A DNA stretch of 31,803 nt, from positions 1-31,803 of the IMG/VR virus record IMGVR_UViG_3300025870_000044. One strand, given 5' to 3'. How positions within the stretch are numbered: the stretch's first letter is position 1; every line of letters starts with the position of its first letter. This document shows positions 5,464 through 31,803 of this stretch, piece by piece. A program made the translations under genes and the position numbers. A model generated the notes under the pieces. That model had not been told where the DNA came from. It did not search any database and saw only the letters and a program-made list of their open reading frames with translations. Source of the DNA: a virus.

Positions 5464-5548
5464 CAATCGTTTGTTAATAAAGTTTCTTTAATTTGTATTT
5501 ATATTTATAAATATATTTATATATTTGACTAAATTATAAAATTAAAAT
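5464..5548 (+). promoter_or_regulatory. AT-rich intergenic region ahead of the early block. It holds a candidate Bacteroidota-type -7 promoter box and a palindromic operator.
   Basis: TATATTTG at 5520-5527 matches the TAnnTTTG -7 consensus. A perfect 16-bp palindrome, TATATTTATAAATATA, lies at 5500-5515. An RHH regulator gene starts at 5549. Confidence 0.35.
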
Positions 5549-5701
5549 ATGTCAGATTTAAAATATACTATGAGAACATTTTATGTTCCAGCAGACAAAT
5601 TAGAAACTCTAGTAAAATTTCAAAATAAATGTAAAGAGTTAGGACATAAGTCTTATTCTAAGGTTTTACTAAAACTTATGGAGGACTTTAATGATGGATA
5701 A
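5549..5701 (+). CDS. Ribbon-helix-helix (Arc/CopG-like) DNA-binding protein, 50 aa.
   Basis: Hand-translated: MSDLKYTMRTFYVPADKLETLVKFQNKCKELGHKSYSKVLLKLMEDFNDG. The layout is short beta strand (RTFYVP), helix, G, helix, as in RHH proteins. It is the first gene after an intergenic region. Confidence 0.45.
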   Translation: MSDLKYTMRTFYVPADKLETLVKFQNKCKELGHKSYSKVLLKLMEDFNDG

Positions 5702-7775: not shown

Positions 7776-8093
7776 ATGAAAGAGTCAAAAGTCTTGAAGG
7801 CATTGGGTTTGAGTTGGTTAGATATACAAAATATGTTAACAAACGGAATGACAATGCCTGAAATTGCTAAAAAATATAAAATAACTTATATTAGTTTAGT
7901 ACAAGCCTATAGAATCCAGAAAAAGGATTTTAAATATATTGACTACAAACAACCTAAAAAAGAAGTAGAGGACATTAAAATAGTGTCCTCTAGTTTCGAT
8001 AGGTTATACACTGAAGAGTCATTAAATGAAAATGAGTTATTAGCCTTTTACAAATACGAACAAAAAAACAAAGCATATTTTGACTTTAATTAA
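7776..8093 (+). CDS. Helix-turn-helix DNA-binding protein (105 aa).
   Basis: HTH-like segment MTMPEIAKKYKITYISLVQAY. Confidence 0.45.
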   Translation: MKESKVLKALGLSWLDIQNMLTNGMTMPEIAKKYKITYISLVQAYRIQKKDFKYIDYKQPKKEVEDIKIVSSSFDRLYTEESLNENELLAFYKYEQKNKAYFDFN

Positions 8094-8502
8094 CAATCAT
8101 AAACAAATTAAACAAGTCGTAGACTTCACTGGTTTACAAAATGGGTTAATACATCCTACTGACATAGACGCTGTCTTAGAGTTTGACAATGATGTTTTAA
8201 TAATTATAGAGTTAAAATATAAAAATGCTGAAATACCTACAGGACAAAGGTTGGTTTTAGAAAGAATTTGCAATTCATGGCACACAAAAAAGTCAGTAGT
8301 TTTAAAAGTAGAACACGACTTTAATGTAGAAAATGAAGCAATACCTTTAGACAGTTGCACAGTAACTAAAATTTATTATAATAGTAAATGGCATAATAAA
8401 AATATTAATTTAGTTGACCAATTAAACAACTTAGGTAAACATTTTAACTGCAACAAACTACAATTTAATACAAACAATGAGCAAAGAACTACCCTATTTT
8501 AA
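8080..8502 (+). CDS. PD-(D/E)XK-fold nuclease-like protein (140 aa; TTG start uncertain).
   Basis: HPTDIDAVLEF...VLIIIELKYK fits the D-x(n)-E-x-K restriction-endonuclease-like core. Confidence 0.4.
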   Translation: MTLINNHKQIKQVVDFTGLQNGLIHPTDIDAVLEFDNDVLIIIELKYKNAEIPTGQRLVLERICNSWHTKKSVVLKVEHDFNVENEAIPLDSCTVTKIYYNSKWHNKNINLVDQLNNLGKHFNCNKLQFNTNNEQRTTLF

Positions 8503-8866
8503 AGCGTTTCCTAGTCAGTGGCTAGGAGGTGATATAATGTATTTATCTAAAGAGGACAAAGGGTCTTTTATAGATGCCTGTTTTCACTACTGGAATAAAG
8601 ATTGTTCAATGACCTATATTAAAATGGCTAGGCGAATTGGTCAAGATTCTCTAGACGTTCTAATAGATGAGGGAATGATTGAAAAAAAGGACAACCAAAT
8701 TAACATAAAATTTTTAGATACACAATACAAAGAAAGAAAAGAACAATATTTTAAACGAGTCGAAGCTGCTAAAAAGTCAAAGAAAAAAACTACATTTAGT
8801 GACCCAATACACAAAAATACTGACTCATTAAAGAAATTTTTAAGCACAATCAATGATACTAAATAA
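8477..8866 (+). CDS. DUF1376 / YdaU-like replication-associated protein (129 aa).
   Basis: N-terminal LPYFKAFPSQWLGGDIMYLSKEDKGSFIDACFHYW matches the DUF1376 signature. It sits directly upstream of the helicase. Confidence 0.5.
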   Translation: MSKELPYFKAFPSQWLGGDIMYLSKEDKGSFIDACFHYWNKDCSMTYIKMARRIGQDSLDVLIDEGMIEKKDNQINIKFLDTQYKERKEQYFKRVEAAKKSKKKTTFSDPIHKNTDSLKKFLSTINDTK

Positions 8867-9725
8867 AGGCTACGGACTAGACTACGCTATTAAATACAAA
8901 AACGGAGAGATTAAAAAAGGTCTAGGAATAGGCTGTCCAATTACTGACAAGTATGTAAGATTTAAAACTGGTCAAATGGTAGTAGTTTCTGGCTTTCCAA
9001 ATGTTGGTAAAACTTACTTTTTTATTTGGTATTTACTTTGTCACTCTATAAATAACAATTTGAAATGGTGTGTTTGGAGTGGAGAAAACTCTCCAGAACT
9101 ATTAAAAATTAGTATGATTCAAATGCTAACAGGACAAAAAGTTGAGGACCTAACTGAATCAGAAATTAAAAAACAAATAGAAATCATTGACAGTTACTTT
9201 AAATTTGTAGACAATAGAAAGTTATACACTGCTGGAGACCTTTTAAATATATTTGCTAAAGAAGATGTAGACGGTTGCTTAATAGACCCTTACACTGGTC
9301 TAAATATAGAAAGAGGTGGTAAGCTTGGACAGTTTGATAGAAATTATTTATTCTGTAATAATGTTAGAGAGTTTTGTAATAAGACTGGAAAGACAGTTTA
9401 TATTAATACACATCCAATAAGCGAAGCAGCTAGAAGAGTCTACAAGCCTGGACATACTTTAGAGGGCTTCGTCCAGCCTCCAAAGTCTAGTGATATTGAG
9501 GGAGGCATGGGGTTCATAAATCGAGCTGACGATGTATATGCTATTCACAGAATGGGCAACCATCCAGAGTTTAAAACAATGACAGAACTACATGTTCAAA
9601 AGGTTAAAAATGTTATGACTGGAGGAGAACTTACTACACTAGATGAACCTTTAAGATTTAATTTTTACAATGGTTATTATACAATTGGAGGTAATAATCC
9701 ACTAAAACACATACAAAATGGATGA
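8853..9725 (+). CDS. DnaB-C-terminal-domain-type replicative helicase (290 aa, no DnaB N-terminal domain).
   Basis: Walker A GFPNVGKT, SGENSPELLKISMIQMLTG (compare SLEMS..QL), Walker B GCLIDPY, and SDIEGGMGFINRADDVYAIHR (compare SG.IEQDAD.V..L.R). Confidence 0.7.
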   Translation: MILNKGYGLDYAIKYKNGEIKKGLGIGCPITDKYVRFKTGQMVVVSGFPNVGKTYFFIWYLLCHSINNNLKWCVWSGENSPELLKISMIQMLTGQKVEDLTESEIKKQIEIIDSYFKFVDNRKLYTAGDLLNIFAKEDVDGCLIDPYTGLNIERGGKLGQFDRNYLFCNNVREFCNKTGKTVYINTHPISEAARRVYKPGHTLEGFVQPPKSSDIEGGMGFINRADDVYAIHRMGNHPEFKTMTELHVQKVKNVMTGGELTTLDEPLRFNFYNGYYTIGGNNPLKHIQNG

Positions 9726-12723: not shown

Positions 12724-12874
12724 AAAAGAAATGTTAAAAAGGAGATTAACATATAATAATAAAAGAGTTTATATTAAATCATTAAGTAGCAAAATAGCTA
12801 TTGTTAGTCATACTGAGGAAGGTAATTATAAACAATTTAAAGTTAATATTGAGGACCTAGTAGAGTTTAAATGA
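12695..12874 (+). CDS. Micro-ORF: 59-aa hypothetical protein.
   Basis: Hand-translated: MDWMILEKTKKEMLKRRLTYNNKRVYIKSLSSKIAIVSHTEEGNYKQFKVNIEDLVEFK. Its stop overlaps the next ATG (ATGA). Confidence 0.3.
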   Translation: MDWMILEKTKKEMLKRRLTYNNKRVYIKSLSSKIAIVSHTEEGNYKQFKVNIEDLVEFK

Positions 12875-13026
12875 AACTAACACCTAAAGAAATAAAAGAA
12901 CAAAAAGCTAAGTTTGGAAGTAAAGCTGTAAATTACTTTGTTAGGTTTATGGAAGCTAAAAGAAAATGGAGGAGACTTCCAGACTACTTTATAAAACAAG
13001 TTATAGACAATAGCGAGAAACTATGA
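12871..13026 (+). CDS. Micro-ORF: 51-aa hypothetical protein.
   Basis: Hand-translated: MKLTPKEIKEQKAKFGSKAVNYFVRFMEAKRKWRRLPDYFIKQVIDNSEKL. It has ATGA overlaps at both ends and so bridges to terS. Confidence 0.3.
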   Translation: MKLTPKEIKEQKAKFGSKAVNYFVRFMEAKRKWRRLPDYFIKQVIDNSEKL

Positions 13027-13490
13027 ATAAGCTAACACCTAAACAACGTAAATTTGCTGAGGAGTATGTCAACACTGGCAATGCGTCAGAGGCTTATAGA
13101 CGGGCTTATAATGTTAGCGAAACAACTAGTCTGGACACTATTAAAGTAAACTCTAGTAAGCTGTTAGCAGATACTAACATAATACTAACAGTCAAAGAGT
13201 TACAGAAACAAGAAGCAGAAGCCTTTCAAATAACACGTAAGGAAGTAGCTGAGGGCTATTTTAAGATGATTAAAAGTTGGGAATATCTAATGGACCTAGC
13301 AGCAAAAGAAAACCTCACAAAAGAGCAGAAAGCTAAATTCTATTTACTTAAAGAAATGGTCAAGGGTTCTGACTATAGAGGTGCTTATGATTCTATAGCT
13401 AAGATGTTTGGGCTAAATGCACCAGACAAACAAGAGATTGAATCCACAGTTAATAATATTAATATCAACATAAAGCGTGGAAGCGACTGA
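13023..13490 (+). CDS. terS: Terminase small subunit (Terminase_2-like).
   Basis: LTPKQRKFAEEYVNTGNASEAYRRAYNVSE matches the family N-terminal HTH signature. It lies immediately upstream of, and overlaps, terL. Confidence 0.8.
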   Translation: MNKLTPKQRKFAEEYVNTGNASEAYRRAYNVSETTSLDTIKVNSSKLLADTNIILTVKELQKQEAEAFQITRKEVAEGYFKMIKSWEYLMDLAAKENLTKEQKAKFYLLKEMVKGSDYRGAYDSIAKMFGLNAPDKQEIESTVNNININIKRGSD

Positions 13491-14655
13491 AATATTCGAG
13501 CGTAATTATGACAGTCAGTCTAAAATCGTAATAAATAGAGGAGGGACTAGAAGTTCTAAAACCTGGTCGTTAAATCAATTATGTGCATTGTGGTTAATTA
13601 GTGGCAACTATGGAGATGGTAAGTATTGTCATGAGGGTGTATGGACCACAGTTAGGAAATATAGGACAAATTTAGATGGTACAGTAATTAGAGACTTTGA
13701 GGACATTTTAAAGGCTGAGGGTTGGTATTCTGGAATTGACCATAACAAAACTAAGAAACAGTATAGATATGGAAAAAGGTTAGTAGAGTTTATAGGTGCA
13801 GATGACGAACAAAAGCTAAGGGGGGCTAAAAGAAATATACTTTACTGCAATGAAGCCAATGAGTTAGAATACAAACAAGAGTTTTTTCAGTTACTAATGA
13901 GGACCGAGAATAAGATATTCCTAGACTTTAACCCAGACGATGAACAAATATGGATTAATCAGGAGCTAGAAATAAAGCGTTCTAATGAAGTAGGAGACGT
14001 TGAGGTTATAGTAAGTAACTACAAAAACAATGCGTTTCTACCTAAGTCACTAATAAAAGAAATAGAATACCTAAAACAAACAGACAAAGAGTTCTGGAAG
14101 ATTTATGGACTTGGTGAATATGGAAATATAAGTGGTTTAATATACGAGAATGTCAAGTATGTTGATAGTATGCCAGATTGTAAGTTAGTGGCACATGGAT
14201 TAGATTTTGGCTATTCAATAGATAGTTGTGCAGCTTTGTCAGTTTACCGAAAAGATGACGAACTATATTTAAAAGAGTTAATCTATGAAAGAGAATTGAC
14301 TAATCATGACATAGCAGAAAAGCTAATTCCTATTATTGGTAGAGAAGAGTTAATTTGTGATAGTGCAGAACCTAAGTCAATTGAGGAACTATATAGACTA
14401 GGACTAAACGCTAAACCAGCAGCTAAAGGAAGAGACAGTATTCTAAACGGAATAGACATTCTTAAACGCTATAAAATCAATGTTGTTAATAGTAGTAACC
14501 TTAGAAGAGAGTTTAGGATGTATAAATGGGCAACTGACAAAAACGGAAATAGTCTTCAAAAACCAATAGGACAAGACCATTTAATGGATGCTTTGAGATA
14601 CGTGGCATTAATACATTTAAAAGAAAATAATCGAGGTTGGTATGCAATAAGATAA
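13477..14655 (+). CDS. terL: Terminase large subunit (PBSX/XtmB-like, 392 aa, GTG start).
   Basis: Walker-A-like NRGGTRSSKTWS, then ILYCNEANEL (Walker B / coupling region), and a C-terminal nuclease-like region with HGLDFGYSIDSCA, LICDSAEPKSIEEL and DHLMDALRY. Confidence 0.8.
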   Translation: MEATEIFERNYDSQSKIVINRGGTRSSKTWSLNQLCALWLISGNYGDGKYCHEGVWTTVRKYRTNLDGTVIRDFEDILKAEGWYSGIDHNKTKKQYRYGKRLVEFIGADDEQKLRGAKRNILYCNEANELEYKQEFFQLLMRTENKIFLDFNPDDEQIWINQELEIKRSNEVGDVEVIVSNYKNNAFLPKSLIKEIEYLKQTDKEFWKIYGLGEYGNISGLIYENVKYVDSMPDCKLVAHGLDFGYSIDSCAALSVYRKDDELYLKELIYERELTNHDIAEKLIPIIGREELICDSAEPKSIEELYRLGLNAKPAAKGRDSILNGIDILKRYKINVVNSSNLRREFRMYKWATDKNGNSLQKPIGQDHLMDALRYVALIHLKENNRGWYAIR

Positions 14656-14740
14656 TTTATTATATTTGAATGATAATTAATAAATAACTAACTCAATGCG
14701 TTAGATTAGCCAATGTTTATTAAATTACGTTTTGGGAATT

Positions 14741-14775
14741 GGGAGTGGTCGGCAAAAGAGCGTCACTCCCTTTTT
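14741..14775 (+). terminator. Candidate intrinsic terminator downstream of terL.
   Basis: GGGAGTG (14741-14747) pairs with CACTCCC (14764-14770) and is followed by TTTTT (14771-14775). The 16-nt loop is large. Confidence 0.45.
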
Positions 14776-14792
14776 ATTTACAGGAAAGAAAA

Positions 14793-14836
14793 GAGCAAAT
14801 GCTGAGCAAATGCTATGCAAATGCTGAGCAAATGGG
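14793..14836. repeat. Four tandem 11-bp units: GAGCAAATGCT, GAGCAAATGCT, ATGCAAATGCT, GAGCAAATGGG.
   Basis: Read directly. Unit starts are at 14793, 14804, 14815 and 14826, about one helical turn apart. Confidence 0.9.
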
Positions 14837-14841
14837 GTTAT

Positions 14842-14869
14842 ATAAGATAAGATAAGATATTTATCTTAT
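14842..14869. repeat. (ATAAG)x3 tandem repeat merging into an 8-bp-arm inverted repeat, ATAAGATA-tt-TATCTTAT.
   Basis: Read directly. The inverted-repeat arms are 14852-14859 and 14862-14869. Confidence 0.85.
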
Positions 14870-15011
14870 TATTGATATATACTAATTCATAAACTAGATA
14901 ATTAAATATATTAGTTTTAAGACACTATAAATAGTTAATGTATATAAACATATATAAAAAGTATTTAAGTTTCTTAGAATTGATTTAAATACTATTCTCA
15001 TCCATTGTGAG

Positions 15012-15043
15012 TTAGTATTTTAGTTAGTGTTTAGTTGTTTAGT
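15012..15043. repeat. Cluster of five TTAGT motifs.
   Basis: gttagtattttagttagtgtttagttgtttagtatttta. TTAGT starts at 15012, 15020, 15024, 15031 and 15039. Confidence 0.8.
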
Positions 15044-15067
15044 ATTTTACTTTAAATTATTTAACAG

Positions 15068-15099
15068 TCGTTTAACGTTCGTTCAAACGTTCGTTTAAC
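15068..15099. repeat. Interleaved direct repeats: TCGTTTAAC x2 (15068, 15091) and AACGTTCGTT x2 (15074, 15086).
   Basis: Read directly. Each AACGTTCGTT copy contains the AACGTT palindrome. Confidence 0.9.
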
Positions 15100-15174
15100 C
15101 ATTAAGAATAAGACAAAATAAAACAATAATAACATTATAGAAAAATTAAACAATAAAAAACTAAATAACAATTA

Positions 15175-15205
15175 TAGCACGCTTTAGCACGCTAAATAGC
15201 ACGCT
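15175..15205. repeat. Three copies of TAGCACGCT, starting at 15175, 15185 and 15197.
   Basis: Read directly. This is a GC-rich 9-mer in an otherwise AT-rich context, with 10- and 12-bp spacing. Confidence 0.9.
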
Positions 15206-15227
15206 TTGTTTTTTTACTATTAAAATC

Positions 15228-15258
15228 AAGTGGACTTTAAGTGCACTTCAAGTGGACT
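15228..15258. repeat. Three AAGTG(G/C)ACT sites phased at exactly 11 bp. The central one is the perfect palindrome AAGTGCACTT.
   Basis: AAGTGGACT at 15228, AAGTGCACT at 15239 and AAGTGGACT at 15250. The flanking CAAGTGGACT copies are 22 bp apart. Confidence 0.9.
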
Positions 15259-15269
15259 CTAAGCATATC

Positions 15270-15293
15270 TATTCTATTATTTTTTATTCTATT
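15270..15293. repeat. TATTCTATT x2 (15270, 15285).
   Basis: Read directly. The AT-only composition makes chance occurrence more likely. Confidence 0.6.
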
Positions 15294-15365
15294 CTTTTAT
15301 TTAATTAAGTAAATTATTTATTTTAGTGTTTTGTTATTATTTAAAAATTTGTTATATATAGAATT

Positions 15366-16010
15366 ATGGAAATTACAATCCCAACAAAGTGGGAAGATGT
15401 TACAATAGGAAACTACATCAACCTAAGACCAGTATTAAACTCTAAACTAAACCCTATAGAAAGAGTAATAAACATTCTAGCAGTCTTAACAGGACAGAAA
15501 AGAGATGTAATAAAGAATATTAGTTTAGACCAGTTTAAGTCTATTAAAAAGAAAATGAGTTTCTTAGAGACTGAATTACCTAACAAACTAAAAGACAAAA
15601 GATTTAAGATTGGTGGTCAATGGTATGAGTTTAAAGTAGATGCTAAGAAGTTATTATTTGGAGAGTATATTAACAGTATGGAGATATTGCAAAATGCTCA
15701 GGATAATGAGGAAGCAATATTTAACAACTTGCATCATATACTAACTACTATTTGTAGACCAGTTAAAAAAACTTTGTTTGGTTGGAAACATATTAACGTA
15801 GATAGTGAGATACTTAGAAAGACAGCAGACAACTTTCTAAACAACATGCCAATGACAATAGCTTACCCAATAGGTGTTTTTTTTTACACTCACTCGGAGG
15901 ACTTAACAAAAGTTATAAAAACTTGTTTGATGGAACAAGCCGAGAAGATGACGAAGGAAGCAAGGGAGGAACTGGATTTAGTCAACGATGGGGATGGTGG
16001 CACACCTTAG
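15366..16010 (+). CDS. Tail-assembly-chaperone-like protein, zero-frame product (214 aa).
   Basis: ATG start directly after the non-coding island. It contains a T9 slippery run and an overlapping -1 frame ORF that lacks a normal start. Composition resembles phage chaperone (G-like) proteins, but the family could not be verified. Confidence 0.45.
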   Translation: MEITIPTKWEDVTIGNYINLRPVLNSKLNPIERVINILAVLTGQKRDVIKNISLDQFKSIKKKMSFLETELPNKLKDKRFKIGGQWYEFKVDAKKLLFGEYINSMEILQNAQDNEEAIFNNLHHILTTICRPVKKTLFGWKHINVDSEILRKTADNFLNNMPMTIAYPIGVFFYTHSEDLTKVIKTCLMEQAEKMTKEAREELDLVNDGDGGTP

Positions 16011-16162
16011 ACAATTTGACTAATAGTAGGATAGACAAATGGGATGAGATACTAAACTGGGATATAACTAAAGCTCTAAACATAGTAGCTTATTATAGTG
16101 ATAAACAAAAAATGGAACAACAGGTCCAAAGAGAAATGAGACAAAAGTATAAACATAGATAA
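15884..16162 (+). CDS. -1 frame extension. The predicted frameshift fusion product (G/GT-like) combines codons 1-173 of 15366.. with 92 codons from this frame, about 265 aa in total.
   Basis: The -1 frame is open from 15818 to 16162. Its only candidate start near the 5' end is TTG at 15923; the first in-frame ATG lies in its last ~20 codons. The slippery heptamer T_TTT_TTT sits at 15878-15884 in the zero frame. Confidence 0.45.
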   Translation, partial: LHSLGGLNKSYKNLFDGTSREDDEGSKGGTGFSQRWGWWHTLDNLTNSRIDKWDEILNWDITKALNIVAYYSDKQKMEQQVQREMRQKYKHR

Positions 16163-28861: not shown

Positions 28862-29409
28862 TGGCAGTTTTATTCATATCAGAGCAATACGTAAAGAACA
28901 CTACTCTCATTGACGAGAATGTAGATGTCAAATTAATTTTGCCAAGTATTAAAGACTGTCAGGAGTTAAGAATCCATCCAATTCTAGGGACTCCGTTCTA
29001 TGAAGATTTAAAAACTAAGATAACTGCTGGAACTTTAAACAGTGACGAAGTTAATTTATTGGACGTATATATTGCTCCAGCTATGGCTCAATGGACTACT
29101 TATGAGTGTAGTACATCAATGCTATTTAAGTATAGAAACAAATCTGTATCAACTAAGAACAGCGAGAACAGCAACCCTATAAGCTACCAAGACTTGCAAT
29201 ATCTTAGAGACGAATGGAAGAACAAAGCAGAAGAAAGAGAAGCTAGGTTAATAAACTACTTATGTGACAATGATAATCTATTCCCTAAGTATAAGGAAAA
29301 TAGTGACGATTTACATCCAAGAAAAACAGCTTATCAAACTAGTTTTTATTTAGGTGGTTCTAGTTCAAACTTTTGTTGGAGAGACGAATATAGAAATAGT
29401 AAAAAATGA
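28861..29409 (+). CDS. Putative head-tail connector / head-completion protein (182 aa).
   Basis: Position after the portal. The N-terminal pattern ISEQYVKNTTLIDENVDVKLILPSIKDCQELRIHPILGTPFYEDL resembles gp6-like connector proteins. Unverified. Confidence 0.35.
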   Translation: MAVLFISEQYVKNTTLIDENVDVKLILPSIKDCQELRIHPILGTPFYEDLKTKITAGTLNSDEVNLLDVYIAPAMAQWTTYECSTSMLFKYRNKSVSTKNSENSNPISYQDLQYLRDEWKNKAEEREARLINYLCDNDNLFPKYKENSDDLHPRKTAYQTSFYLGGSSSNFCWRDEYRNSKK

Positions 29410-29873
29410 TATTAACCTATAATCAAATATTAAAAGAGTTTAAGACTTTTGCTACTAACCATAAGCAAATAGAAAACTTTGGCAATGGTGACTTATGGGA
29501 AATAGTAGAACATAACCAACTAACAGACTTTAACTATCCTTTGTTTTGGGTAGCTGACCAGCCAGCTAATTTAGGTGATGGGACTTTTACTTGGAATTTT
29601 AATGTCATGGCTATGGACCTAGTAAACAAAGACGAGTCTAATGAGAATGATGTCAAGTCTGATATGTGTCAAGTGCTTTTAGATTGTGTTTCATACTTTG
29701 AACAAAAGACAGCAACTAGCAATAACGTAGATTGGTTAAAAGTTAACTTAGTTAGGTCAGGAACTTTGACTAGTTTTACAGAAAGATTTGAAGACGAATT
29801 AACAGGATGGGGAATGAATATAGGATTTAGACTTCCGTTTAGTTATAATAATTGTGATTTACCAATAGAATAA
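29406..29873 (+). CDS. Hypothetical virion-module protein (155 aa).
   Basis: ORF with ATGA coupling to the upstream gene. Confidence 0.4.
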   Translation: MILTYNQILKEFKTFATNHKQIENFGNGDLWEIVEHNQLTDFNYPLFWVADQPANLGDGTFTWNFNVMAMDLVNKDESNENDVKSDMCQVLLDCVSYFEQKTATSNNVDWLKVNLVRSGTLTSFTERFEDELTGWGMNIGFRLPFSYNNCDLPIE

Positions 29874-29875
29874 AG

Positions 29876-31803
29876 ATGGCTATATTTTACAATCCAAATA
29901 GAAAAAAAGGTTTATTTTACATCCCATCTGGTGCTACTGGAGGAGGTGCTATTTTAAGAATTGAATATAGTGCTGCTAGATTTTGCGAGGATGGAATAGA
30001 CCCAATTCCTGGCATAACTGGAGACACTGGAGGAACTTTTTCTAGTACTACTGGATTAGTATTTATTTCTACTTCTACTGGACAAGTAGACTTATCTGCT
30101 TCTACTCCTGGAAGTTATGTTGTGACTTATACTGCTCTAAGTTCTGACACTGCTACAACATCAATTTCTATAGATTCTATTCCTGTTGTTTCTGCTGGTG
30201 CTGATGTTGCTATTTGTACTGGAAACAGCACTGTCTTAACTGCTTCAGGTGCTACTACTTATTCTTGGTCAACTGGTGAAACTACTGCTAGTATAACTGT
30301 TGACCCTACAACAAACACTACTTACACAGTGACTGGATTTAATGGAGCATGTTCTGCTACAGACTCTGTAGACGTTACAGTTTATCCTTTGCCAAGTGTT
30401 AGTATTTCAGGAACTTTAACTTATTGTATTGGGTCTAACACAACTTTAGATGCTGGAGCTGGTTTTGCTTCTTATTCTTGGAGTAGTGGAGAAACTACAC
30501 AGACCATTAGTGCAACTGCTGGTAATTACACTGTAACAGTAACAGACAGCAATGGTTGTTCTAATACATCTGCACAAGTAACAGTTACAGAAACTCCATT
30601 AGATGTTGCAACAGTTGTTTATGATTCAAGTTCTTATTGTCAAGTGCCAACAGGTGCTTTAGATGTAGAGGGTTACTATCCACTATATTCTACTGAATCT
30701 GCTTCAAATGCAGTAAGTTCAGATGGTACTTCACACAGCCACACATTAGGCGGAACTACTTACTATATGCCAAACGCTGGAATAGTAGTTTATCATGGCA
30801 CTTATTCTCTAACTGCTACTCCTACTATCACAGGTGAAAGTGGAACATTTAATAGTCCAAGCGGATTGAGTATTGATGCTAATGGTGTTATTGATAAAAA
30901 TGCTTCTACTGCTGGAACATATAGCGTAGAATATACTACTACTGGAAGCTGTCCAATTACTATAACTAATTCAATAACTATAACCGCTTTAGATAATGCA
31001 ACATTTGCTTATGGTTTAAGTGCTTACTGTGATAATGTTTCAGACCCAACACCTACTAAAAGTGCTACAGGAACATTTAGTTCTTCTACTGGTTTAATTA
31101 TTAATACTTCAACTGGTGAAGTTGATTTAGATGCTTCTACTGCTGGTACTTATGTTATTGGTTTTGTAACAAATGGTAGCTGTCCAAATAGTTCTATTCA
31201 AACTTTAACTATTAATGCTGCTCCTACTGTAGCTATTAGTGGAACTCTTTCTTATTGTGCTGGTCCTGGTTCAAATACTACACTTACTGCTACTGCTGGA
31301 TTAAGTAGTTATTTATGGTCAAGTGGTGAAACTACTCAAAGCATAACCGCTACCGCTGGTAGTTATACTGTTACTGGAACAGACGCTAATGGTTGTTCAA
31401 ATACTTCATCAAGTGTAACAGTTACAGAAACACCTTTAGACAATGCTGGATTTAGTTACTCTGCAAGTAGTTACGAGCCAACAGATGCAGACCCAACACC
31501 TACTATCACAGGTTTAACTGGTGGAACGTTTAGCGGAACAACTGGTTTAGTAATTAACTCAACTACTGGAGAGATAGATTTAAGTGCATCAACTATTGCT
31601 ACTCATACTATTACTTATGATACTACTTCAAGCGGTTCAAGTGTTTGTCCAAATACATCAACTCAAACTGTAGAAATAGCTGTAGCTGGATTTCCTAATA
31701 ATTACAGTATGAATTTTGATTCTGCAAGCGGGGATTATATAAATGCTGGAAGCTCTTTAGATGTAACTGGCACAATAACTTTTTCAGCTTGGATAAATAT
31801 AGA
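29876..31803 (+). CDS. 5' part of the wrap-around tail fibre / adhesin gene (809 aa on the circular map). It holds alternating Ig-like repeat families; the LamG end is encoded at 1..629.
   Basis: Hand-translated from the ATG at 29876 with no stop to the window end. 29876 and 31709 (= base 33) share a frame. Repeats of type ISGTL(T/S)YC.G..TTL.A.AG..SY.WSSGETTQ.I.ATAG.YTVT.TD.NGCSNTS..VTVTETPLD alternate with type DPTPT..G.TGGTFS..TGL.IN..TGE.DL.AST.G.Y.I. Confidence 0.8.
   Translation, partial: MAIFYNPNRKKGLFYIPSGATGGGAILRIEYSAARFCEDGIDPIPGITGDTGGTFSSTTGLVFISTSTGQVDLSASTPGSYVVTYTALSSDTATTSISIDSIPVVSAGADVAICTGNSTVLTASGATTYSWSTGETTASITVDPTTNTTYTVTGFNGACSATDSVDVTVYPLPSVSISGTLTYCIGSNTTLDAGAGFASYSWSSGETTQTISATAGNYTVTVTDSNGCSNTSAQVTVTETPLDVATVVYDSSSYCQVPTGALDVEGYYPLYSTESASNAVSSDGTSHSHTLGGTTYYMPNAGIVVYHGTYSLTATPTITGESGTFNSPSGLSIDANGVIDKNASTAGTYSVEYTTTGSCPITITNSITITALDNATFAYGLSAYCDNVSDPTPTKSATGTFSSSTGLIINTSTGEVDLDASTAGTYVIGFVTNGSCPNSSIQTLTINAAPTVAISGTLSYCAGPGSNTTLTATAGLSSYLWSSGETTQSITATAGSYTVTGTDANGCSNTSSSVTVTETPLDNAGFSYSASSYEPTDADPTPTITGLTGGTFSGTTGLVINSTTGEIDLSASTIATHTITYDTTSSGSSVCPNTSTQTVEIAVAGFPNNYSMNFDSASGDYINAGSSLDVTGTITFSAWINI
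31677..31803. repeat. Terminal direct repeat, copy 2 (identical to 1-127).
   Basis: See copy 1. Confidence 0.95.

Follow-up and report, generated by a model that had tools for sequence, protein, structure and literature searches.

A putative iteron-type replication origin at the terminase/late-gene boundary of an uncultured Bacteroidota phage, with counterparts in genes of a candidate initiator family

The replication origin (ori) of phage lambda lies in the middle of gene O and comprises iterons and an AT-rich tract; its four iterons, which possess internal symmetry, encode a linker of the protein, and iteron number varies among lambdoid phages, changing the residues encoded (PMC7466680). 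Phage SPP1 carries two origins, oriL within gene 38 and oriR in a late intergenic segment, both made up of direct repeats together with an AT-rich unwinding element and both bound by gp38; the segment that holds oriR is bracketed by transcription signals and carries morons (PMC6316719). Here we characterize a repeat-rich intergenic island (positions 14656-15365) in a viral sequence of 31,803 nucleotides, IMG/VR record IMGVR_UViG_3300025870_000044 (this entire stretch is termed the window), where it separates terL (13477-14655) from the gene at 15366-16010. The core of this island is probably a replication origin to which an initiator-like protein of the phage itself binds, the product of gene 8477-8866 (gp8477); we infer binding, unwinding and origin activity from mechanistic analogy with the systems above, not from membership through homology. 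In the gp8477 family, by the same analogy, the origin most likely resides normally within the initiator gene, and many relatives most likely have a second copy between terL and the late genes. What would be new is an iteron origin situated in the gene of an uncharacterised initiator family, with a second copy in the late region.

Array architecture and its copies in genes of the gp8477 family

The most likely origin core comprises the four 11-bp units of the array, the adjoining (AAGAT)n run and unstable DNA reaching to about 14990 (Table 1). The AT-rich stretch that forms part of it is, by nearest-neighbour energy, the least stable 150 bp of the genome (-0.975, against a mean of -1.201 and a standard deviation of 0.053). 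A search of GenBank phage DNA found no cultured relative of this phage; more than 100 relatives were present among IMG/VR and metagenome contigs, and the island was aligned against 70 unique relative versions. A layout of three to five 11-bp units followed by (A/T)AGCATT and (AAGAN)n was kept in 66 of these 70. Arrays were classed by their repeated word: GAGCAAATGCT in class 1, to which the window belongs, CTTAAGCAATAC in class 2, ACTA(T/C)AGCNNN in class 3, TAGCGTTTGCT in class 4 and GCTTAAGYRYT in class 5. All class-1 relatives keep four units (three in a few) and conserve the AT-rich stretch, of which the segment 14914-14991 is also about 80% conserved in class 4. In distant relatives (TerL 77-88% identical) the island is unalignable, the array architecture is retained and the words are lineage-specific. 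A second phage group (group 2), retrieved by means of a hairpin motif described below, is still more remote: its TerL is 28% identical to that of the window, homology of its TerS is undetectable, and its replication genes are 33-79% identical.

Units of different classes have internal dyads of the forms AGC-N4-GCT, AAGC-N3-GCTT and GCTTAAGC. Such symmetry would point to recognition by a DNA-binding protein that acts as a dimer and changes its specificity together with the word. Class 1 is set apart from every other array class only by g8477, g9718 and g10902, all proteins of the replication module; TerS, TerL and the downstream genes do not separate it. The helicase gene that gp8477 overlaps (8853-9725) is replaced in five relatives (L034, L037, L038, L053 and L055) by a version 48-50% identical, in company with the same iteron word and a gp8477 that is 60-70% identical; because the helicase is replaced while the word is unchanged, the helicase does not determine the word.

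Copies of the module within genes provide the principal link to gp8477. In group 2, the array and purine run occur twice, downstream of terL and within the 3' part of the gp8477 homologue, where the copy lies 60-85 bp upstream of the helicase gene and encodes ...GGLSRAKALRKDKIRKD; several group-2 phages have no terL-proximal copy. In each of classes 2, 3, 4 and group 2, the class's own word is common to the in-gene and terL-proximal copies. The in-gene GCTTAAGCAATGCTAAAGCATT and terL-proximal CTTAAGCAATGCTTAAGCAATAC of class 2 share an exact match of 13 nt, the corresponding sequences of class 3 (TACAGCTAAGCTACAGCGTAGC... and TACAGCTATACTACAGCGAAGC...) a collinear match of 42 nt, and both copies of class 4 contain a common 10-mer, present in inverted orientation. 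Symmetric repeats and an unwinding-prone tract that lie in the linker of a gene directly before the helicase gene constitute a lambda-type arrangement.

This placement extends across the protein family, which a profile search resolved into 1733 representative clusters at 50% identity. We surveyed 80 diverse members from IMG/VR (33-47% identical), using 786 tiles from their flanks as a control. An array with a period of 10-12 nt occupied the same 220-nt part of the gene in 73 of the 80 members, compared with 61 of the 786 control tiles (8%), and an adjoining purine run with a period of 5, 6 or 15 nt was also present in 69 of the 80. Neither 11 nor 5 is divisible by three, which places the constraint on the DNA and not on the protein. 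One homologue, 40% identical to gp8477 and encoded on a 56-kb contig (L259; IMGVR_UViG_3300023181_000034), has an in-gene array bearing the very word of the window's island, AAGCAAATGCT; at 1120-1220 of that contig the array reads AAGCAAGTGCT AAGCAAACCGA AGCAAATGCTA AGCAAAATGA, after which comes an (AGAGA)n run. No such array is present in gene 8477-8866 of the window itself, the corresponding linker being deleted, and repeat scans found no second iteron array elsewhere in the window, nor near its replication genes. The lineage of the window has lost its in-gene copy, leaving the island as the sole one. At least one copy was present in every examined genome in which both regions were visible and a gp8477-family gene was detected: class 1 has the island copy only, and L209 and L149 have the in-gene copy only.

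In relation to what is expected of an iteron origin, the window thus holds four helically phased direct repeats of one word, where at least three were sought, and a low-stability AT-rich stretch adjacent to them; location of the repeats within or beside an initiator gene that adjoins a helicase gene was found in relatives (classes 2, 3 and 4, group 2, and the 73 of 80 family members), not in the window's gene. We propose a mechanism in which dimers of the initiator would occupy all four phased sites, the purine run and AT-rich DNA beside them would open, and the helicase encoded by the neighbouring gene would then be loaded.

Several observations weigh against this interpretation. The AlphaFold2 (AF2) model of gp8477, with the order helix-helix-helix, beta-hairpin and long helix, is winged-helix-like, with a predicted recognition helix at aa 56-64 and a predicted wing at aa 68-77, and of moderate confidence (predicted local distance difference test score, pLDDT, 66), and its top Foldseek matches, all of them winged-helix DNA binders, include none that is significant (E of at least 0.13). 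Profile scans of Pfam, NCBIfam and PHROGs provided no name for the protein, its match to a PHROG 'primosomal protein' being weak; comparison with SPP1 gp38 detected no homology (hhalign probability 0.2%), and homology to a characterised origin-binding protein was not found with SPP1 gp38, Pfam and NCBIfam, lambda O not having been compared. Overall phylogeny, as well as other genes of the same module, confounds any covariation between word and protein, and the intergenic copy of class 4 is inverted relative to the in-gene copy. In every case the distance from the array to a promoter-like box or gene start downstream of it is 20-100 bp, positions that would suit a purely transcriptional role as well. 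Finally, the cumulative GC skew climbs steadily across the island and does not switch there. A model-generated first-pass annotation of the island, made from the sequence only, had proposed cumulative GC/AT skew as a check; the curve proved monotonic, a result that is uninformative for a phage with its genes on one strand and probably sigma replication. The likeness to an iteron origin suggested in the same annotation is supported for repeat sets 1 and 2 and the adjacent AT-rich stretch, in view of the in-gene copies, the family-wide array and the low stability, and does not extend to the other sets.

Table 1. Features of the island and of the gene for its putative initiator (window coordinates)
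Feature	Coordinates	Strand	Content or basis
Putative origin-binding initiator gp8477 (129 aa), proposed to act in trans on the island	8477-8866	+	Upstream of and overlapping DnaB-like helicase gene 8853-9725
Promoter-like element directly after terL stop	14637-14668	+	TTG at 14637-14639; Bacteroidota-type -7 box TATATTTG at 14661-14668
Variable leader of putative short transcription unit	14669-14740	+	Conserved CGTTTTGG at 14728-14735; alignments of relatives
Hairpin with T-run, intrinsic-terminator-like	14741-14779	+	Stem GGGAGTG/CACTCCC at 14741-14747 and 14764-14770
Iteron-like array	14793-14836	none	Four 11-bp units (G/A)(A/T)GCAAATGCT, each with dyad AGC-N4-GCT
Repeat set 1	14793-14834/36		GAGCAAATGCT x3.8
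AT-rich low-stability stretch, candidate DNA-unwinding element	14838-14987	none	Nearest-neighbour energy
Repeat set 2	14842-14859		(ATAAG)x3.6, continuing into palindrome AAGATA-TT-TATCTT
Purine pentamer run	14844-14867	none	(AAGAT)x3 at 14844-14859, ending in palindrome AAGATA-TT-TATCTT at 14854-14867
T-rich TTAGT repeats	15008-15063	+	Conserved across class 1
Repeat set 3	15012-15043		TTAGT x5
Left 11-bp direct repeat flanking cassette	15053-15063	none	TAAATTATTTA; single copy in cassette-free relatives
Repeat set 4	15063-15099		AACGTTCGTT and TCGTTTAAC
Cassette, first half	15064-15172	none	Dyad-symmetric AACGTTCGTT units x2.5 (2-5 in relatives), then A-rich tract
Cassette, second half	15173-15302	none	TAGCACGCT x3, AAGTGGACT x3, TATTCTATT x2
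Repeat set 5	15175-15205		TAGCACGCT x3
Repeat set 6	15228-15258		AAGTGGACT / AAGTGCACT / AAGTGGACT, spacing exactly 11 bp
Repeat set 7	15270-15293		TATTCTATT x2
Promoter and leader block of gene 15366-16010	15305-15365	+	Includes TAAAAATTTG at 15342-15351; conservation in relatives
Right 11-bp direct repeat flanking cassette	15310-15320	none	TAAATTATTTA

Other modules of the island and their genomic setting

The genome is a circle of 31,676 bp: positions 1-127 and 31677-31803 of the window form an exact terminal direct repeat of 127 bp, located within a structural gene, which is the assembly overlap of a circular or circularly permuted genome. The window has 32% G+C, and its + strand carries all genes. 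The island follows terS (13023-13490) and terL; the gene after it, 15366-16010, matches only a PHROG family of unknown function, and its function could not be assigned. Scans of the window detected no transfer RNA or transfer-messenger RNA gene, and no Rfam match at the gathering score, only chance-level hits falling on the island at E<=10. Much of the first-pass description was reproduced: the island is free of genes, its longest open reading frame (ORF) spanning 38 aa and none being conserved as coding; all seven repeat sets described were located (Table 1); and the reported A/T-rich stretch at 14870-15000 measures 15% G+C. Its designation of gene 15366-16010 as the first tail gene was not borne out. 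The shuffling control that it recommended also came out in its favour. Repeat density, the count of 8-mers with at least two G/C recurring within 40 bp, was 37 in the island and 0.46±0.95 in 500 dinucleotide-preserving shuffles, none of which reached 37; this value is the maximum over all 710-bp segments of the genome (median 1), and the density was 0 in each of the five other intergenic gaps. Small ORFs in the island (at most 38 aa) were considered as coding sequences and rejected: their peptides derive from ATG-containing repeats, and substitutions in them show no synonymous bias.

In relatives, anything from 2 to 1446 bp separates terL from the gene that follows, and alignment shows the island to be a mosaic of modules. 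Part A, the core (from 14656 or 14741 to 15063), occurs in about 50 of 70 relatives at 73-95% identity; part B (15064-15309), which holds repeat sets 4-7, in only about 10 of 75; and part C (15305-15365) in about 60 of 70 at 82-98% identity. Sets 4-7, lying in a cassette that the alignment (another check that had been recommended) shows to be absent from most relatives, do not represent core functions. The suggestion that several binding proteins converge on the island is weakened, inasmuch as sets 4-7 belong to an optional cassette and set 3 is T-rich DNA that immediately precedes the next gene's promoter. In cassette-free relatives this TTAGT tract runs without interruption into the tract that borders the gene-15366 promoter block on its upstream side; the late operon has its upstream tract at 15008-15063 and its promoter at 15305-15365, and neither segment is part of the origin. 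Relatives with long gaps have DNA methyltransferase genes (one of several) or small ORFs between terL and the core, which makes the site a hotspot for accessory genes where two operons meet. DNA methyltransferases with a DPPY motif and a common C-terminus, ...FIGIEQDENYFNIAEQRIKETEYKLF, are found after terL in at least six different kinds (for example in L002, L004, L005, L011, L018, L035 and L106, and in L148 of group 2); the window has none.

Between the terL stop and the array lies a compact unit (14637-14779) whose promoter-like box and hairpin with T-run had escaped the earlier annotation. The box TATATTTG is an exact match to TAnnTTTG, and a sigma-70-type scan flags the same spot; each of the 56 unique hairpin variants has a TAnnTTT(G/A) box at 36-87 nt upstream of its apex (TATATTTG itself in 33 of them), and in many relatives another terminator precedes this box. 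The 5' part of the leader is lineage-variable, and its GTTTTGG is common to the group-2 phages, with their TerL of 28% identity. The hairpin, present once in the window, has a 7-bp stem, a 16-nt apex GTCGGCAAAAGAGCGT (14748-14763), a T-run at 14771-14779 and a fold energy of -16.5 kcal/mol. Compensatory changes were found at all nine variable stem pairs (18 distinct variants), and stem cells are paired in 94.9% of cases, compared with 42-69% in slid controls, so that a covarying stem and U-run, as in a terminator or structured RNA, are both present. The apex is unchanged in all variants; its invariance in group 2 is partly by construction, these phages having been retrieved by the motif, which is not so for relatives found by protein homology. 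The apex GUCGGCAAAAGAGCGU is thus invariant, with covarying stems, across two phage groups that share 28% TerL identity. The hairpin itself had no Rfam match at the gathering score, with chance-level hits only at E<=10; its motif gave a single chance hit in 185,579 GTDB genomes, with no host or prophage copy; and the complement of its apex had one 8-mer match in the phage genome, against 2.1 expected, providing no target. The unit looks like a short transcription unit of 55-105 nt that would yield a small RNA or a leader with an attenuator. On these features it would close the terminase operon or make a small RNA, and would not belong to the origin; the segment 14661-14779 may act as a small RNA, or as RNA that is targeted by an antitermination factor or an RNA-binding factor, and we know of no antiterminator for it.

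The optional cassette (15064-15309) has a distinct affinity. Within its first half, 15074-15153 matches, at 82-89% identity, an interior part of a 198-aa gene found in integrative elements of Bacteroidota, and the N-terminus of the protein encoded by that gene is 35% identical to gp8477. The gene (L124:7907-8503, L128:3354-3950 and L134:3078-3674, all on the - strand) has an internal AACGNNCGTT array and an A-rich tract. The elements, of about 8 kb, lie beside tRNA-Gln or tRNA-Leu/Gly and encode a tyrosine integrase, an HTH_17 protein and cargo sorted by the type IX secretion system (T9SS), whose sorting domain identifies the host of the element as Bacteroidota; they may represent a type of small element in marine Bacteroidota that is mobilisable or satellite-like. 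By the logic of in-gene arrays, the first half of the cassette would be the origin-like module of another initiator, imported from the initiator gene of an integrative element. Its presence suggests that phage and element engage in origin mimicry or cross-talk, in which a foreign initiator might be titrated or borrowed by the phage, or the phage might be exploited by the element. The AACGTTCGTT array was rejected as the phage's own essential origin, in that cassette-free relatives keep a gp8477 that is 93-97% identical. A miniature inverted-repeat transposable element (MITE) or insertion sequence was likewise rejected: the cassette is flanked by the 11-bp repeat TAAATTATTTA, but its ends, ACAGTCGTTT... 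and ...TTTAATTAAG, are not inverted repeats. The second half is reversed in L095/L130 and L098/L119/L132 (91% identity on the minus strand, with collinear flanks) and absent from the cassette variant of L023/L025/L090/L129. Other cassette versions (L143:180-270; L023/L025/L090/L129) contain ACGTGT / CACACGTG and ACGTATAA x2, and the position seems to collect diverse short-repeat modules.

The hairpin unit and the optional cassette are two things that assignment of the core as an origin leaves unexplained. A joint account, in which the former is a new phage riboregulator and the latter reflects phage/integrative-element origin mimicry or cross-talk, is one we advance tentatively, as possible and still doubtful.

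Two further loci of the window were noted. Gene 7776-8093 (105 aa) is 77-80% identical in group 2, but only 28-50% identical in the close relatives L029 and L043, a pattern that we read as a possible sign of recent horizontal exchange. The gap 5464-5690 contains repeats of the form (TTTATA)n and, at 5520, a -7 box TATATTTG that is perfect; it ties for the least stable 100 bp of the genome and is probably an early promoter region.

Alternative explanations for the repeats

The array and purine run could instead be a binding array for an activator or repressor of the late or small-RNA promoter, the in-gene copy regulating an internal helicase promoter. The island does form the boundary between the terminase and late operons. 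In group 2 and in class 2 the module lies upstream of the hairpin-unit -7 box, in L056/L060 it precedes a small ORF, in classes 4 and 5 some 60 bp separate it from the ATG of the next gene and, in its in-gene form, it lies 60-85 bp upstream of the helicase start; a near-consensus box, TATTATTG (14867-14874), also follows the module of the window. Spacing is less accommodating, since the next gene is some 500 bp away in the window and from 60 to more than 500 bp away in relatives. Moreover, group-2 phages that lack the terL-proximal array retain hairpin and promoter, no candidate regulator was identified, and the fixed in-gene position (73 of 80), helicase neighbour and unwinding-prone tract form the classic arrangement of an origin; we therefore regard a regulatory array as rather unlikely. 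The location of the island immediately downstream of terS-terL would also suit a pac or cos site recognised for packaging, in which the small terminase would wrap the phased repeats, and the first-pass annotation had raised the idea of physical ends or packaging. Some pac sites contain phased repeats, the TerL of this phage is SPP1-like (PDB 2wbn, E 4e-10), implying headful packaging from pac, and several assemblies break within the island. Nonetheless the array word does not track the terminase: within array class 1, TerS occurs with at least three variants of its variable N-terminal region (aa 30-62), and the variant of the window occurs also in classes 2 and 4 with other words, for which reason TerS was rejected as the reader of the array. 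Group 2 combines an unrelated TerS and a TerL of 28% identity with the same module, some of its phages have no terL-proximal copy, a copy within a replication gene has no packaging logic, and contig ends, a weak proxy for termini, are scattered over 14683-14983 or fall in the tandem array, as assembly breaks would. A packaging site is thus very improbable here. Concerning packaging itself, residues 30-62 of TerS constitute a mosaic cassette, with at least three sharply different versions in proteins otherwise 85-100% identical, which suggests an exchange of DNA-recognition modules. Directly upstream of terS is a gene-free gap of 300 bp (12724-13022); in SPP1-like headful phages, pac conventionally lies near or upstream of terS or in its 5' part.

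Two further explanations deny the repeats a role in replication altogether or concern the cassette. Functionless products of slippage and recombination, accumulated in a permissive hotspot that collects junk and morons, would be compatible with the gap of 2-1446 bp in relatives, the methyltransferase genes and small ORFs found there, and an optional cassette whose array varies from 2 to 5 copies; such a derivation may apply to parts of that cassette. For the island as a whole we give it very little credence, in that array architecture is kept between groups at 28% TerL identity, words change in concert at two loci, the hairpin has compensatory substitutions, and period, copy number and adjoining purine run are all conserved. 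Scarcely credible, in turn, is an invertible switch (inverton) for the late promoter formed by 15173-15302, even though this segment lies about 60 bp upstream of the late promoter block and occurs in both orientations across relatives with collinear flanks. Its boundary inverted repeats are short, AT-rich and matched at about 9 of 12 positions (CTAAATAACAAT versus the reverse complement CTTAATTAAAT); the inverted state is confined to one closely related lineage and never accompanies the forward state in one sample; the segment is absent from most relatives; and no recombinase was found in the 38 ORFs scanned, ORFs 15923-16162 and 29406-29873 lying outside the scan. A possible resemblance of AACGTTCGT to a Bacteroides invertase repeat consensus was set aside; the units are not at the inversion boundaries. 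We treat the segment as a putative fixed inversion and not as a demonstrated switch.

Implications and comparison with described systems

If the island core and its in-gene counterparts are origins, a large protein family, hitherto uncharacterised, from marine Bacteroidota phages that are uncultured could be assigned a function and a DNA target. Its members would be origin-binding initiators whose genes themselves contain the origin, in the form of 11-bp iterons and a purine repeat of 5 nt, and this origin could duplicate into, or relocate to, the terminase/late-gene boundary, a behaviour for which SPP1 oriL/oriR offers the best-studied parallel. A simple sequence rule would then serve to find origins in such phages, natural pairs of word and initiator would supply specificity variants for the study of initiator-iteron co-evolution, and the modules would become candidate replicon parts for Flavobacteriia. 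A search of the literature on flavobacterial phage iterons found nothing relevant.

Among systems outside phage replication, the parC/ParR centromere of plasmid R1 also comprises arrays of 11-bp iterons, and resembles the present array in its tandem units at helical phasing, presumably bound cooperatively. In contrast, no partition ATPase, actin-like or ParR-like gene was found among the phage ORFs scanned, and an array within a replication gene is unfit for a centromere; the phage appears to be lytic. The hairpin unit has its nearest parallel in the PR'-tR' 6S transcript of lambda, a small phage RNA that ends in a terminator hairpin: a promoter-like box, a leader of 55-105 nt, a G+C-rich stem and a T-run occur just upstream of a late operon. 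It departs from that type of RNA in having no Rfam match, and from a plain terminator in its invariant 16-nt apex, unexpected in two phage groups that share little else.

With respect to the origin itself, in-gene arrays of the gp8477 family, like those of lambdoid phages, vary in unit number and so add or remove residues of the encoded protein. Lambda iterons are 19 bp, whereas the units described here are 11 bp, an extra copy occurs outside the gene, and the copy of the window is wholly outside it. SPP1 provides the closer match in layout. Its gene 38, examined with Tandem Repeats Finder, contains a repeat of 11-nt period (x4.6) followed by one of 9-nt period (x3.6), the same order of an 11-nt array and then a short-period repeat as found here. 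Differences are the undetectable homology between gp8477 and gp38, the dyad symmetry of the present units and the 5-nt purine repeat that follows them, retention of only the late-region copy in the lineage of the window, a host in Bacteroidota and not Bacillus, and the fact that the present system is known from sequence alone. The two nevertheless have in common one copy of the origin, here putative, in an initiator gene beside the helicase-loader and helicase genes and a second in a long late intergenic segment that transcription signals bracket and morons accompany, together with an SPP1-like TerL in the phage described here, which also encodes a RusA-type resolvase and a 5'-3' exonuclease.

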